A DNA stretch of 64,000 bases from Bacillota bacterium (GCA_023395435.1 JAEWZG010000061.1:14296-78295), one strand, 5' to 3'; shown: positions 47,694 through 50,947, counted from the first letter of the stretch. Notes: generated by a model from the sequence alone, not told the origin. Made by a program: numbers and translations.

Positions 47694-48224
47694 CTATTTT
47701 TTCTCACTTGTTACTTGACTTGAATCAGTAAAAGAACTATCACCAATTATATCTGTAAGTGGTTCATAATAAAATATTTCATAATTTAATTCTTCTGAGC
47801 AGGCATTAACTATCTCTAGTGATTTTTTAGGATTTTTATAAACCCATTGAGCAGTTAATGGGTTATCACTGTCAATTCCATACTTTTTCTTAAAAATAGG
47901 TTGTAGCTTTTGTATTTCTTCTTTATAGGTATTATATTTATCGTTACTTTCATCAAAAAATATGCTATTGAATCTATTGACTACAGATTCTGTTTTATCA
48001 GTAACAACAATACCCCTTTTTTCTATTTCGTCTAACTCATCATACCCATACTCATTATGTGAAATAAATCCGTATCTCAGCAGATAAACCTTATAGGAAA
48101 AAGAACTAATCCCATCTTTATATATATCAGGCTTTTTAATATTTTTACTTCTTATATATAAAACACCAACAATAATAATAACAATTGCTAAAATTATTAT
48201 TATGTATTTGACTATTTTTCGCAT
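47694..48224 (-). CDS. Membrane-anchored candidate immunity protein
   Basis: 176 aa. MRK plus one TM helix then a soluble domain. Starts 5 nt after the toxin stop, with RBS AAGGGGA. Confidence 0.5.
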   Translation of the reverse strand: MRKIVKYIIIILAIVIIIVGVLYIRSKNIKKPDIYKDGISSFSYKVYLLRYGFISHNEYGYDELDEIEKRGIVVTDKTESVVNRFNSIFFDESNDKYNTYKEEIQKLQPIFKKKYGIDSDNPLTAQWVYKNPKKSLEIVNACSEELNYEIFYYEPLTDIIGDSSFTDSSQVTSEKK

Positions 48225-48228
48225 TAGA

Positions 48229-49824
48229 TCAATCCCCTTCTACTAATATTCCATCCGGATTATCAGCTTGAATCTTATGAAGAATATTATATATTTTAAT
48301 ATCTCCTTTAAAAACGTCTTCCAACAAAATTTTGTTATATTTCTCACCATACTTAATATTTATTTTATCAATACGTTTTTCGGTATCTAATCCAGGTTGA
48401 ACAGATAAAAAGGGCTTAAATCCTTCTGAATATTCTGCCCTAATGCCATACATTTCAAGCTCTTCATATACAGTTGACCATTTACCCAAATCAATAATTG
48501 TTTTTGCATTTTTTATGTCTTCTCTATATTTTTTTTTAGATTGATGTATATCTCCAATAGCAACAATTACATCCCCTACAAATGGTACTGCTCCAGCTAT
48601 ACTTTTTGCGCCAGCTTTTGAAGTGTGTATTGATAATTGTTTTTCAATTTTTTTCTGAACTTGTTTTTCAATTGCTTCTCTTAATTTATCATATCCTTCA
48701 GTTGCCAGAAATCCCTCTGCTGTTTGCTTAGGAGAAAGTGAAAAAGAATCACCATAATATAAAGCAAATTCTTTTTCCGTCTGATCATTGCGATCATAAT
48801 CAAACCCTTTATTTTCAACTTGAAGAACTTTAGAAATTACTATTTGCTCATTATCAAAATAATATTCTCTTGTTATATCAGAGTACCCCATATTTTCAAG
48901 GCATTTATAATCACCATATTGTAAAATTACGTCACCATTTTGTTGAGTCCCAGAAAAAAAACCAATTTGGTCTTTAAAGGGTGATTTCACTTCAGTAATT
49001 TTACTTAATGCTTTTGTTAAGCTATTTCTTTGCATTGCTAATTTATAAGAATTTAAAGATTCATTATTATCATCGTCTATTCCATGTATTTTAAAAGCTA
49101 AAGCTTCACAGTATTTTTGATACTGGAGAATACTTAACATATCAGAAAAATTACTGAGCTTTCCAGTATCCAATTTCCAAATAGAATGTGCTGGCTTAAT
49201 TTCACGAACTCTAACTGGGGATACGCCCTTTCCCGCTTCAGTTATTATACCGAACTTATTATCTTCATAGCTTTTCTTATCATAAAATTCAGATAAAAAT
49301 TCCGAAACATCACCATCTTCTAATGAAAGAAATATCATTGCCAATATCATATTATCTTCATCTGTTATTTCTTCAGCATTTCTATTTAAAATTACCTTCC
49401 ATTTTTCGTCTGTGCTATAAAACTCTAATATAGTTAGAAACTCCTCAGCAGATGGTTTAATAAAGTTTTGAAAACTATTCTTTTCAAATGTACAACGTAG
49501 ATCGCAAACTCCATTTAGCACCTTTGTTTCCATATTTAAAATTTCAAGTTTTAATTTTAATTCTGATAACCTTCGACTTGTTGTTCTTTCTGCTTCTTCA
49601 CAATCTGCAAAAACTTTGTTTATACATTTCTTTGACATTTCCAATGATTCATTAAATTTGTTATAAAACTTATTAATATAACAGTAAAAATCAACGTCAC
49701 TGTATGATGAGTTCAACTGATTTAGTTTTTCTTTCAGTATATACATTTCTTCAAGACTTAAATCAATATTTTTAAGTAAGGATAGCTTTTTTACGAAGTC
49801 ATAATTACGGATAGTTGTTCCCAT
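48229..49824 (-). CDS. Candidate polymorphic toxin (helical N-region, PT-TG-like motif, unique 105-aa C-terminal domain)
   Basis: 531 aa from ATG 49824 (RBS GAGGAAG). IAGAVPFVGDVIVAIGDI at 48547-48603 resembles the pre-toxin motif in the Rhs orphan at 57661-57795. Confidence 0.5.
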   Translation of the reverse strand: MGTTIRNYDFVKKLSLLKNIDLSLEEMYILKEKLNQLNSSYSDVDFYCYINKFYNKFNESLEMSKKCINKVFADCEEAERTTSRRLSELKLKLEILNMETKVLNGVCDLRCTFEKNSFQNFIKPSAEEFLTILEFYSTDEKWKVILNRNAEEITDEDNMILAMIFLSLEDGDVSEFLSEFYDKKSYEDNKFGIITEAGKGVSPVRVREIKPAHSIWKLDTGKLSNFSDMLSILQYQKYCEALAFKIHGIDDDNNESLNSYKLAMQRNSLTKALSKITEVKSPFKDQIGFFSGTQQNGDVILQYGDYKCLENMGYSDITREYYFDNEQIVISKVLQVENKGFDYDRNDQTEKEFALYYGDSFSLSPKQTAEGFLATEGYDKLREAIEKQVQKKIEKQLSIHTSKAGAKSIAGAVPFVGDVIVAIGDIHQSKKKYREDIKNAKTIIDLGKWSTVYEELEMYGIRAEYSEGFKPFLSVQPGLDTEKRIDKINIKYGEKYNKILLEDVFKGDIKIYNILHKIQADNPDGILVEGD

Positions 49825-49841
49825 ATTATTCTTCCTCTTCT

Positions 49842-50126
49842 TTATTTTCCTGTAATATAACAAGTAACTTTTTCATCTGCTTCAATCATATTTGTATCAA
49901 ACGATTTTATTTCCTTAATAACTTTATTCATTATCTCAACGCGGTAATTAACATTAATTTGTAATTTTTTAATTATCTCATTTAGTACTACAGTAACAGA
50001 ACATTTACTATCACAAAACTCCATGTTAAGAAGTTTATTTTGATATTCTAACATTGAATTGTATATGCTTTCTAGCTTTTTCAGACTATTTGAAATTTCA
50101 TCACTATTAGATGTTATTTGTTTCAT
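49842..50126 (-). CDS. Small helical protein, YwqI/DUF5344- or TIGR04197-like T7SS accessory candidate
   Basis: 94 aa predicted helical hairpin. C-terminal ...MIEADEKVT resembles the conserved acidic end of that family. RBS AGGTGA. Confidence 0.4.
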   Translation of the reverse strand: MKQITSNSDEISNSLKKLESIYNSMLEYQNKLLNMEFCDSKCSVTVVLNEIIKKLQINVNYRVEIMNKVIKEIKSFDTNMIEADEKVTCYITGK

Positions 50127-50132
50127 TTATTT

Positions 50133-50459
50133 TCACCTCAATAAATTTGTATTCAAACTATTAGGATTAAAATCGTCAGAACATTCTATATCGTGTAGGT
50201 ATCCATCTGTAAAACTAATTACTTTTCTTATTTCACCCGTCAATTCTGAAATTTCATTCCTTGTCGTTTTACTGAATTTATCGGCGAACAGCTTTAAATT
50301 ATCTGATGTGCATCCCTGAAAGTTATTTGAAGATGCTAACTTATTTATTTCGTCAAAGAAATCTTTGGAACACTTTTCTACTTTATTTGCAATTGCATCC
50401 ATTTTCCTAACCACTAGGGATATTTCTGACGTACTAATTATATAATGTGGACCAAACAT
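50133..50459 (-). CDS. Stand-alone LXG-like N-terminal domain protein
   Basis: 108 aa. IISTSEISLVVRKMDAI...NNFQGCTSDNLKLFADKF...ISFTDGYLHDIECSDDFNPNSL follows the LXG pattern (x-G, K.F/Y, Y..vD). RBS GGAGGGG. Confidence 0.4.
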   Translation of the reverse strand: MFGPHYIISTSEISLVVRKMDAIANKVEKCSKDFFDEINKLASSNNFQGCTSDNLKLFADKFSKTTRNEISELTGEIRKVISFTDGYLHDIECSDDFNPNSLNTNLLR

Positions 50460-50476
50460 TATTTCCCCTCCTAGTT

Positions 50477-50884
50477 CTATATTAACTGGCTTTTTAAGTA
50501 ATTAATTTCATTATTACACGCTTCAATTTGTTGATTATAATTTGCAATGCAACTAGTGACTTTACTCATTTCACCAGAGATATCATCCATTTTTTGTCTG
50601 ATTTGATTATTGCAATTAGCTATTTGACCTGAAAAAAAGATCTCACCAAAACATTCAGAAATTTTTTTAGCACTAACTAGTTCTAGGTTTCCAGCAGAAC
50701 ATAACATATTATATCTGTTGTTGTTATCAAAAAAAGATTCATGCAAATCAAGTAACGCCTTTAAGTTTTTATATTCCTCTTCTAGGAATACTTTTTTACT
50801 TTTACATTCAGATATATTTTCACATAAAACTGAAATAGTATTATTATTACTATTTATTTGATAAACAATATCACAATCATTCAT
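50477..50884 (-). CDS. Coiled-coil protein, YwqH/DUF5082-like accessory candidate
   Basis: 135 aa, heptad-rich, first gene of the operon. Confidence 0.35.
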   Translation of the reverse strand: MNDCDIVYQINSNNNTISVLCENISECKSKKVFLEEEYKNLKALLDLHESFFDNNNRYNMLCSAGNLELVSAKKISECFGEIFFSGQIANCNNQIRQKMDDISGEMSKVTSCIANYNQQIEACNNEINYLKSQLI

Positions 50885-50918
50885 AACAATCTCTCCGCTC
50901 AGTCATAGTTTATTAAAT

Positions 50919-50947
50919 ATTATAACATAATATATCAATGCTTTCAA
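50919..50947 (-). promoter_or_regulatory. Near-consensus sigma-A promoter of the toxin operon
   Basis: TTGAAA (50947-50942), 17-nt spacer, TATAAT (50924-50919) on the - strand. About 35 nt upstream of the first start codon. Confidence 0.65.

Follow-up and report, generated by a model that had tools for sequence, protein, structure and literature searches.

What does the compact operon at positions 47694-50947 of this 64,000-nucleotide stretch of DNA (the window) encode, and does it belong to type VII secretion? The host is an uncultured spore-forming gut-type Clostridium. The original prediction was of a polymorphic-toxin operon resembling a T7SSb LXG/Lap module, carried on a tRNA-Leu island. 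Our analysis indicates that, taken as a whole, the operon is probably a T7SSb-type toxin-immunity module on an integrase-less tRNA-Leu cassette. The features are as follows.

38473-38559, plus strand: intact tRNA-Leu(TAA), source of the repeated att-like core
51067-51201, plus strand: upstream 135-nt direct repeat, holding a copy of the tRNA-Leu 3' 63 nt at 51138-51200 (98% identical)
50919-50947, minus strand: promoter-like site, TTGAAA-17-TG-n-TATAAT, 11/12 matches; putative function
50884-50477, minus strand: g1, 135 aa, proline-free coiled-coil protein; putative targeting partner 1 (possibly DUF5082/Lap4-like)
50459-50133, minus strand: g2, 108 aa; putative targeting partner 2
50126-49842, minus strand: g3, 94 aa, proline-free; putative targeting partner 3
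49824-48229, minus strand: g4, 531 aa from an RBS-bearing ATG
49444-49824, minus strand: g4 codons 1-127, putative N-terminal targeting domain, predicted long helical hairpin, lacking a signal peptide
48229-49443, minus strand: g4 codons 128-531, conserved ~400-aa cargo body, putative toxin
48550-48594, minus strand: g4 family signature, G411-x-V-P414-x-x-G417-D-(6 hydrophobic)-D425, inside a moderately hydrophobic stretch
48224-47694, minus strand: g5, 176 aa, N-terminally signal-anchored; putative extracytoplasmic immunity protein
about 47608-47652, minus strand: strong intrinsic terminator 3' of g5, absent from the original prediction, a hairpin followed by UUUU (-23.7 kcal/mol, z = -4.78)
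47326-47460, plus strand: downstream 135-nt direct repeat, holding a copy of the tRNA-Leu 3' 63 nt at 47397-47459 (94% identical)

All five minus-strand genes are present where they had been placed, with the expected sizes of 135, 108, 94, 531 and 176 aa. They are separated by 17, 6, 17 and 4 nt, and each start is preceded by a ribosome-binding site of the GGAG/GAGG type. For g4 an upstream TTG start would yield 544 aa; public gene calls take 531 aa. The near-consensus promoter is also found at its predicted position, ~35 nt 5' of the g1 start, and with its TG extension it is the best of 30 such sites in the region. Promoter-like sites are not enriched there (30, against 23.6 +/- 5.5 expected from shuffles), so that TTGAAA-17-TATAAT is a plausible promoter of the operon and not a stronger candidate than that.

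We searched all five proteins against Pfam, NCBIfam, PADLOC, PHROGs and PDB sequences, and obtained nothing significant. The best PADLOC match had E = 7.8e-4, with short partial matches only, and viral contigs held no relative. Profile searches against PDB sequences with g1, g2, g3, the g4 N-terminal domain, g5 and the whole g4 family likewise found nothing. None of the five proteins matches LXG (PF04740), DUF5344, DUF3958, DUF3130/TIGR04197, WXG100 or PT-TG, even at E <= 10. The LXG, DUF5344/TIGR04197 and PT-TG assignments therefore fail. The 64-kb window contains no T7SS core gene, in agreement with the original prediction.

The three upstream proteins had been described as small and all-helical. 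Neither g1 nor g3 contains a single proline, consistent with an all-helical structure. A survey of 5.8 billion clusters yielded just 3 close relatives of g1, which is 25-29% identical over its full length to its homolog L008_a. It had been called DUF5082-like. What stands of this is a hint below the cutoff: residues 85-134 of g1 align to positions 69-118 of the YwqH-like profile PF16888 (DUF5082) with E = 0.032 and 14.9 bits, against a cutoff of 33.7. L008_a gives a similarly sub-threshold match (E = 0.054, positions 57-115). The two matches are mutually consistent, yet they occur among generic coiled-coil matches. g2 is 44% identical to L098_b, and a central turn, [FM]-x-G-x-x-[AS]-D-N, is conserved in three lineages. 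Despite its 108-aa length and the central turn, g2 matches neither WXG100 (PF06013) at E <= 10 nor LXG using the Pfam HMMs, and its family is unrelated to the TIGR04197 proteins (hhalign probability 1%). g3 is 54% identical to L098_c. Its supposed resemblance to DUF5344/TIGR04197 was rejected, with no profile match at E <= 10 and an hhalign probability of 0.06% against true Lap1 proteins. The FxxxD export motif is at best partly kept, as IKSFD in g3 and FKLVD in its homolog L008_c.

The other Lap classes gave a similar result. None of g1-g3 matches Lap1 (DUF3130/TIGR04197) at E <= 10; as positive controls, L006_a and L010_94a reach 47.9 and 56.4 bits (cutoff 26). There is no Pfam match to Lap2 (DUF3958), and the g1 family compared with L006_b/L010_153 gives an hhalign probability of 0.1%. 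Lap3 (DUF5344, PF17279) is matched neither by g1-g3 at E <= 10 nor by the L008 homologs at E <= 1.

Comparison with a sister allele (L001) divides g4 into two parts. Nucleotide identity is ~90% from 51200 to 49445, and falls to 50-62% in what remains of g4 and in the gene after it. The breakpoint thus lies at ~49445, g4 codon ~127. The small genes, all three, are kept along with g4 as far as codon ~127, and the remainder of g4 is replaced together with the gene that follows; this is the pattern of a polymorphic toxin. The general layout of toxin-immunity loci of this kind is seen here, with a conserved N-terminal region, a divergent C-terminal region and a co-varying downstream gene. At the protein level, residues 1-125 of g4 are ~88% identical to P0002, and the sequences beyond are unrelated by BLAST.

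The N-terminal domain of g4 is ~125 aa in length, is predicted to be helical, and has genes for small helical partners directly 5' to it, as is found around LXG proteins. AF2 places helices at 6-40 and 43-116, with low confidence. There is no hydrophobic N-terminus and no signal peptide. The domain is 37-39% identical to the N-terminus of L098.

The body of g4 (residues ~130-525) is conserved in a rare protein family. It is related to P0016/P0022/P0017 (hhalign probability 99.2%, E = 3.5e-19) and to the more remote P0019/P0020 (97.9%, E = 4.5e-13), with P0019 aligning to residues 141-524. A separate C-terminal domain of 105 aa had been proposed; this is the tail end of the ~400-aa body conserved across the family. 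G411, P414, G417 and D425 are conserved, and the surrounding stretch has Kyte-Doolittle values of 1.4-1.7 in 19-residue windows starting at 404-409. The G-x-V-P-x-x-G-D motif had been read as a PT-TG pre-toxin element. PT-TG (PF14449) has no match at E <= 10 in g4 or six relatives, and the motif is instead a signature of the g4 family. The body has no relative in Pfam, NCBIfam or the PDB; structure models were poor (pLDDT 33 and 49), and a Foldseek search returned nothing. The conserved residues form no catalytic-looking set, and toxicity is therefore something that we infer.

The link to type VII secretion comes from relatives of g4. P0019 begins 14 nt 3' of essC in contig L010, in a cluster that is a complete T7SSb with EsaA-like, WXG100, YukD-like, EssB and EssC genes. 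The EssC has 1480 bits against TIGR03928 (cutoff 778), EssB attains its cutoff on TIGR03926, WXG100 is above its Pfam cutoff, and E = 8e-18 was obtained with the N-terminal model of EsaA. The next gene after P0019 is a homolog of g5, and L010 also carries the TIGR04197/Lap1 protein that served as one control above. In L006, P0020 is preceded by a pair of genes encoding 102 and 160 aa, the former being the other Lap1 control. The N-terminus of P0020 has a weak LXG match (E = 0.0045, 17.3 bits, cutoff 26.5). The T7SSb toxin module of the original prediction is thus supported by g4 and g5 relatives 3' of essC and by a Lap1 gene near another relative, although its LXG, DUF5344/TIGR04197 and PT-TG assignments within the operon do not hold.

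The order of small helical genes, large gene and signal-anchored gene is kept in L001, L004, L005, L008 and L098. The set of partners follows the type of N-terminal domain and not that of the cargo: three small genes accompany the short N-terminus, and the Lap1 pair accompanies the long one. There is no detectable relation between the g4-type N-terminus and the LXG-like N-terminus of P0019/P0020 (hhalign probability 0.8%), nor by hhalign between g1-g3 and the Lap1/Lap2-type pair of the T7SS-linked relatives. Since the export parts lack homology, the targeting module of the window is linked to the T7SS by analogy and by shared cargo and immunity. All contigs with a g4-type N-terminus are of 3.8 kb or less, too short to show a secretion system.

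g5 was predicted to be membrane-anchored, and has a single hydrophobic helix at its N-terminus (Kyte-Doolittle 3.2 in the 19-residue window that starts at residue 4). Homologs lie directly 3' of g4 relatives in L007 (39% over 57 aa, E = 1e-8), L010 (35% over 66 aa, E = 5e-8) and L095. In the L001 allele its place is taken by a signal-anchored protein that is not related to it. An N-terminal anchor is common to all the downstream partners, three of them bearing lipoboxes (LGGC, IAAC and VIAC); this suggests that the immunity domain is extracytoplasmic and that the cell envelope is probably the target. The immunity protein TipC also has an extracytoplasmic domain (PMC10765036).

The island is borne out, and its association with the operon is closer than had been claimed. 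The 3' 63 nt of tRNA-Leu(TAA) (38497-38559) are present in three copies. Two of these lie within 135-nt repeats, 90% identical and 3741 nt apart, that bracket exactly the five-gene operon. The resulting 3.7-kb cassette contains only these five genes and has 28.0% GC, compared with 33-34% in its flanks; Logan contig L004 spans it from repeat to repeat. Sister genomes (89% nucleotide identity) lose colinearity at 38195, with no tRNA gene in the next 10 kb. Boundary repeats of a tRNA 3' end, atypical GC content and absence from close relatives are the marks of a tRNA-associated island. No integrase or recombinase is found among the genes from 38560 to 51200. The locus suggests that modules like this one may move as minimal att-flanked cassettes. 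CIME-type cis-mobilisable elements are likewise integrase-less and att-flanked, and accrete in tandem at tRNA genes. The present cassette resembles them in the tRNA 3'-end repeats bounding each segment, the two tandem segments after tRNA-Leu, the missing recombinase and the deviating GC content. It differs in that no cognate integrative element or integrase is seen in the window, and its mobility is putative.

These observations can be drawn together in a single scheme. g4 would be the effector, most likely an antibacterial toxin that is secreted, with its ~125-aa helical hairpin bound by g1-g3. Together these would form an elongated multi-helix 'shaft', recognised by an EssC-type ATPase whose gene would lie elsewhere in the genome, and the ~400-aa body would be the toxic cargo. 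g5 would be anchored in the producer membrane, its domain outside the cell neutralising the cargo there, which implies that the toxin would act on the envelope (membrane or wall precursors) from outside. Cargo and immunity would be swapped as a pair between strains by recombination just past the targeting domain, and the module would ride on the cassette flanked by att-like tRNA-Leu repeats. Trafficking domains that fall below threshold occur in many T7SSb-linked toxins (PMC13483458). In its fullest form the scheme comprises a new type VII targeting class (a short or 'split' counterpart of LXG, with an extra partner contributing helices that a full LXG domain has of its own), an undescribed family of envelope toxins, a surface-anchored immunity family, and a trans-mobilised tRNA-Leu cassette that swaps alleles; we put this forward tentatively, as possible and rather doubtful.

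Could the cassette instead have no T7SSb to serve it in this host, being an inert acquired remnant or using another exporter, such as T7SSc-j? Those subtypes have been described in Bacillota, and T7SS subtypes with Lap-like partners occur in Clostridia-type Bacillota (PMC11217815). The window has no core secretion gene, g1-g3 and the g4 N-terminal domain lack detectable LXG/Lap homology, the cassette has no integrase, and some alleles are frameshifted (L002 and L098). Yet the five window genes are intact, with a strong predicted promoter, ribosome-binding sites and a terminator, and several samples contain the operon again, intact and 99-100% identical. LXG-type modules are moreover often located away from the core locus (PMC10765036), and we consider this explanation unlikely.

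The product might also be a substrate of a T7SS-type system without being a toxin, i.e. an adhesin, a signalling or a wall-remodelling effector, with g5 as its receptor, anchor or chaperone. The body is conserved over its whole length across the family and is not a mosaic of known toxin domains, and it has neither a toxin family match nor catalytic-looking conserved residues. Against this, the sharp breakpoint with joint replacement of body and downstream gene between near-identical operons, and the orphan g5-like gene beside another large protein in L096, are what diversifying toxin-immunity pairs typically show, and the cassette is strain-variable and resembles a mobile element. A non-toxin role is thus quite improbable. 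An intracellular conflict system unrelated to secretion (anti-phage, abortive infection or a phage-derived cassette) would suit a small, low-GC, att-flanked accessory cassette of five unannotated proteins. It is very hard to reconcile with the results from PADLOC, PHROGs and viral contigs, with the presence of relatives inside a T7SSb locus that has Lap1 genes, and with a g5 partner predicted to face the cell exterior, and we regard it as highly improbable. We therefore favor the T7SSb-type toxin-immunity module.

Type VII toxins shape competition among Gram-positive bacteria, gut anaerobes included, and knowledge of them comes mostly from a few bacilli, staphylococci and streptococci. The present locus indicates that entire effector modules of uncultured Clostridia escape current models (LXG, Lap1-4 and PT-TG). 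It defines cargo and cognate immunity families that have no annotation or structural relative. One cargo occurs with two targeting domains that are unrelated and have separate sets of partners, and this provides a natural experiment on what the T7SS recognises. Should toxicity be confirmed, an immunity protein that faces outward would suggest that the target in the envelope, or the mode of action, is new.

Among known systems, EsaD with EsxB, EsxC and EsxD of Staphylococcus aureus (PMC10653861) has the same plan. Three small alpha-helical partners, all needed, are encoded directly 5' of the large effector, the divergent, helical LXG N-terminus escapes standard models, an immunity gene lies 3', and the cargo is swapped between strains. 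EsaD differs in its location within the ess locus, its requirement for the EsaE chaperone, and its PT-TG domain, nuclease cargo and cytoplasmic immunity protein, EsaG. The window operon has no chaperone gene, no PT-TG match, an undescribed ~400-aa cargo and a surface-anchored partner, and its proteins have no detected sequence homology to EsxB, EsxC or EsxD. TelC-TipC of Streptococcus intermedius, with LapC1/LapC2, also has upstream helical targeting factors (PMC5555719, PMC9600955, PMC10765036). The LXG domain of TelC is recognisable, its partners number two (DUF3130 and DUF3958), and its fold is that of a lipid II phosphatase with Ca-binding aspartates; we detected none of these features in the operon.

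The DUF5344/DUF5082 class, comprising YwqH-YwqI-YwqJ-YwqK of Bacillus subtilis and LapA3/LapA4-TelA of S. intermedius (PMC10801868), shares the order of small helical genes, large effector and immunity gene. The sub-threshold DUF5082 matches of g1 and L008_a fall in the same part of the profile. The window operon differs in having three partners and not two, no DUF5344 or LXG match, a different cargo, and an N-terminal domain of ~125 aa compared with ~190-200 aa. The membrane-depolarising LXG toxins TspA, EsxX and TelE (PMC12744356, PMC10434224) resemble g4 in their long C-terminal helices and conserved glycine-containing hydrophobic stretch, and resemble the g4-g5 pair in membrane-associated protection (putative for g5) and the lack of an enzymatic signature. 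Their GxxxG glycine zippers contrast with g4 glycines 6-7 residues apart (G411, G417 and G424), and at least some have polytopic membrane immunity proteins, unlike the single-anchor g5 with its soluble external domain. Set beside these systems, the operon is most likely built on the known type VII plan, from protein families so far undescribed.

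We have designated the five minus-strand genes of this part of the window g1 to g5, where g4 encodes the putative toxin and g5 the putative immunity protein. They are arranged as a single operon, with the following elements; the last entry is the tRNA gene of the island.

50947..50919, minus strand: promoter TTGAAA-17-TATAAT with a TG extension (11/12 matches), the top promoter-like site in the region
50884..50477, minus strand: g1, 135 aa
50459..50133, minus strand: g2, 108 aa
50126..49842, minus strand: g3, 94 aa
49824..48229, minus strand: g4, 531 aa
48224..47694, minus strand: g5, 176 aa
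38473-38559: intact tRNA-Leu(TAA)

The gaps between successive genes from g1 to g5 are 17, 6, 17 and 4 nt, and a GGAG/GAGG-type ribosome-binding site precedes all five starts. The genes, promoter sequence and ribosome-binding sites of the original prediction are all present. In this AT-rich region there is no overall enrichment of promoter-like sites (30 found, 23.6 ± 5.5 expected). A strong hairpin terminator (−23.7 kcal/mol, z = −4.8), with a U-run after the hairpin, lies 3′ of g5. Proline is absent from g1 and g3, and g5 has a single transmembrane helix at its N-terminus. Cysteine is unusually abundant in the predicted exported proteins: g1 (135 residues) has 8 and g4 has 7, and several of these positions are conserved between alleles.

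The operon had been placed on a tRNA-Leu island, and this is so. The 3′ 63 nt of the tRNA-Leu gene has a 94% identical copy at 47397-47459 and a 98% identical one at 51138-51200. These two copies share 72 more upstream bases; the resulting 135-nt direct repeats, spaced by 3741 nt, have nothing but the five-gene operon between them. The GC content of this cassette is 28.0%, compared with 33-34% in its flanks. Logan contigs of the cassette span repeat to repeat, and the variant on L001, a contig carrying a sister allele of the operon, starts at the same repeat. The genome GCA_023421665.1 has the same operon within an 18.2-kb stretch 99.9% identical to the window. The host is a spore-forming Clostridia-type member of the Bacillota, since a spoIIIA operon lies upstream.

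The tRNA-Leu gene and the first 135-nt repeat are separated by a second segment (38560-47396), which carries a two-component system and genes for handling copper or other metals. Its products are a histidine kinase and a response regulator, together with a DsbD_2-HMA-cupredoxin protein, an FtrD-like protein, a CopA-type P-type ATPase and a 227-aa protein without Pfam match. The segment looks like a copper/metal-resistance islet added in tandem to the toxin cassette. No integrase was found in either the cassette or this segment. Colinearity of the window with two sister genomes (contigs L092 and L093, 89% nucleotide identity) is limited to 27475-38195; the region of difference therefore runs from 38196 to at least the window end. 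At >25 kb it is much larger than the two islets. In these genomes the Bax1-I gene is instead followed by genes for Pyr_redox_2, ABC/FtsX, Fe-ADH, EF-Ts and S2, and there is no tRNA gene in the 10 kb examined past the equivalent of 38195. Just outside the cassette, at 51285-52216, are two overlapping minus-strand ORFs of 185 aa (Thr/Ser/Val-rich) and 131 aa, with no match in Pfam, PADLOC or PHROGs, divided from it by a bidirectional-looking terminator at 51245-51266. Further on, an intergenic repeat of 100-190 nt, seen via the contig L003, occurs within a run of small minus-strand genes at 56478-56667, 58224-58415 and 60032-60129, and also at 58683-58753 (copies 81-89% identical).

Scans of the five proteins against Pfam, NCBIfam, PADLOC and PHROGs gave no significant match. 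The proposed assignments to LXG, DUF5344/TIGR04197 and PT-TG are not sustained, as none of the five proteins matched LXG, WXG100, DUF5344, DUF3958, DUF3130/TIGR04197 or PT-TG in Pfam or NCBIfam at E ≤ 10. The only related signal concerns the predicted DUF5082-like character of the 135-aa protein. The YwqH-like (DUF5082) model matches g1 with E = 0.032, but at 14.9 bits this is below the cutoff of 33.7. A g1 homolog from another lineage (L008_a, 25-29% identical) also matches that section of the profile weakly. The pair is suggestive, but lies amid generic coiled-coil matches. PDB searches with single proteins and profiles (g1, g2, g3, the g4 N-terminus, g5 and the whole family) returned nothing significant; the LXG chain 8gmh_B appeared in the profile search with E = 1.4 only, amid coiled coils. 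The export motifs YxxxD/E and FxxxD are not convincingly conserved in g1-g3.

Relatives of g4 are few. A word-indexed search of 5.8 billion clusters gave two matches for g4, one a fragment of the same protein and the other the 501-aa protein P0002, and three matches for g1. Exhaustive scanning of 1.84 billion representatives with HMMER brought in five more relatives, remote but real, of 564-638 aa (P0016, P0017, P0019, P0020 and P0022) and an N-terminal fragment, P0014. Three TPR proteins (P0015, P0018 and P0021) that matched through a short helical stretch were discarded as spurious. Scanned with the g4 N-terminal alignment, 185,579 GTDB species representatives yielded no relative.

Profile-profile comparison of g4 residues ∼130-525 gave a probability of 97.9% (E = 4.5e-13) with P0019/P0020 and 99.2% (E = 3.5e-19) with P0016/P0022/P0017. 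The last 105 aa, originally singled out as a C-terminal domain, are thus not a separate orphan toxin module, because the homology spans the whole ∼400-aa body as one conserved unit. Signatures of this cargo body are I-T-x-E-E-Y-x-x-L-A at about residue 155, then G411-x-V-P414-x-x-G417-D-(hydrophobic)-D425 and, towards the C-terminus, the block F-D...I-x-P...T...I-x-R-x-N...I-x-x-E-D-V-L-x-N-P. AlphaFold2 models of g4 were poor, with a mean pLDDT of 32.8 from a three-sequence alignment and 49.2 from seven sequences. In the better model, residues 6-40 and 43-116 are predicted to form a long helical hairpin at the N-terminus, residues 131-180 a small helical domain (block-mean pLDDT 77-85), and residues 458-521 an alpha/beta unit. 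We assign no fold to g4, because the best Foldseek match of this model to the PDB has E = 0.9.

The N-terminal ∼125 aa behave differently from the cargo body. P0002 is ∼88% identical to g4 over residues 1-125, and unrelated by BLAST beyond. The same boundary is found in the DNA. Starting in the upstream repeat at 51200 and as far as 49445, the window and L001 have ∼90% nucleotide identity (83-94% in blocks of 150 nt). Over the remainder of g4 and the gene after it the figure drops to 50-62%, placing the breakpoint at about codon 127 of g4. The L001 downstream product is N-terminally anchored, and different from g5. The g4-type N-terminus is found in g4, P0002 and P0014 (contig L098), and in more distant form in P0016 and P0022. 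Between it and the N-terminus of P0019/P0020, which is ∼230 aa long, hhalign detects no relation (probability 0.8%).

The set of small partners tracks the type of N-terminus, the co-variation that binding of these proteins to that domain would predict. L001 and L005 have the same trio as the window (135/108/94 aa), with 85-96% identity. The trio in L008 is 140/113/103 aa, and that in L098 131/101/89 aa, its second and third members being 44% identical to g2 and 54% identical to g3 respectively. A central turn in g2, [FM]-x-G-x-x-[AS]-D-N, is kept in all three lineages; it recalls the WXG/LXG hinge, a lead and not evidence of membership. Some copies of the operon are frameshifted, reflecting assembly error or a decaying allele: in L002 (687-2916) both g2 and g4 are split, and in L098 (2857-3481) the g4 homolog shifts frame after residue 138.

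Members of the g5 family lie directly 3′ of g4 relatives in L007, L010 and L095, and share the motif Y-G-[IF]-D-x-[DN]-N-x-[LI]-T-x-E-W-V-x-x-x-P-K-E-A-[LI]-E. Every one of the downstream proteins carries a signal anchor, and three also a lipobox, so their domains face outward. Elsewhere, in L096 (795-4419), a cysteine synthase gene is followed by an orphan g5-like gene (182 aa) and then by the gene for an unrelated 997-aa protein. The latter appeared LXG-like by eye, with a helical W-Q-G-containing N-terminus, and was set aside on finding no Pfam match and no similarity to g4; it may be another unrecognised effector.

One relative lies in a T7SSb cluster and another beside a Lap1 gene. On the 19.7-kb contig L010, P0019 starts 14 nt past essC in a cluster encoding EsaA-like (N-terminal domain E = 8e-18), WXG100 (confirmed by Pfam), YukD-like, EssA-sized membrane, EssB (at the NCBIfam cutoff) and EssC (TIGR03928, 1480 bits, cutoff 778) proteins. 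The product of the gene 3′ of P0019 is homologous to g5 (35% identical over 66 aa, E = 5e-8). In L006 a pair of genes lies upstream of P0020, encoding a 102-aa bona fide TIGR04197/Lap1 protein (47.9 bits, cutoff 26) with the FxxxD motif and a 160-aa coiled-coil protein. Homologs of both are present in L010, and the P0020 N-terminus has a weak LXG match. Elsewhere, therefore, the cargo and immunity families of the window serve a standard Lap1/Lap2-LXG-type T7SSb effector. The g1-g3 proteins are unrelated to the Lap1/Lap2-type pair. As originally noted, the 64-kb window has no T7SS core genes: phmmer with all L010 proteins matched g4 and g5 only, and the longest ORF is 871 aa. Contigs bearing the g4-type N-terminus are all ≤3.8 kb. 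L010 also has, at 12521-17146, an LRR protein with an N-terminal anchor, whose 39% identical homolog is a lipoprotein after P0020 (L006 2917-3690), and a second set of two ∼95-aa genes with a 404-aa protein and a 115-aa anchored protein. These are further candidate modules in the T7SSb locus, without family assignments.

Could the operon be instead a defence system or phage module? That reading has no support, with nothing significant in PADLOC or PHROGs and no relative on viral contigs. The general interpretation as an LXG/Lap toxin module is backed by independent evidence, but the specific family assignments are not. The locus probably works like an LXG/Lap toxin-immunity module, yet it cannot be filed in the LXG, Lap1-4, WXG100 or PT-TG families. 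Its cargo family and its outward-facing immunity family are new, and a minimal att-flanked cassette carries the whole. This does not amount to a new kind of system, but should be of use to T7SS specialists and annotators of gut Clostridia.

The pattern of g4 and g5 fits that of TelC-TipC, where a cytoplasmically made effector is paired with an outward-facing protector (PMC10765036, PMC5555719). g4 has no signal peptide and the anchored protector would lie outside, implying a non-Sec export route. By this analogy an envelope-acting toxin is favoured, because the protector faces outward. Membrane-active and enzymatic action seem about equally probable. Among the conserved cargo residues, hydrophobic ones, Gly and Pro predominate, and no catalytic set is obvious. 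For the targeting part, EsaD provides a published precedent: its divergent LXG domain escapes standard models and three partners are needed, and its authors suggest that partner number may mirror LXG domain type (PMC10653861). Bacillota also have further T7SS subtypes in which Lap-like partners occur (PMC11217815), so the machine used here may be of a subtype other than T7SSb. The locus is best described as a variation on the T7SS effector plan, with a short unclassified targeting domain and three unclassified partners.
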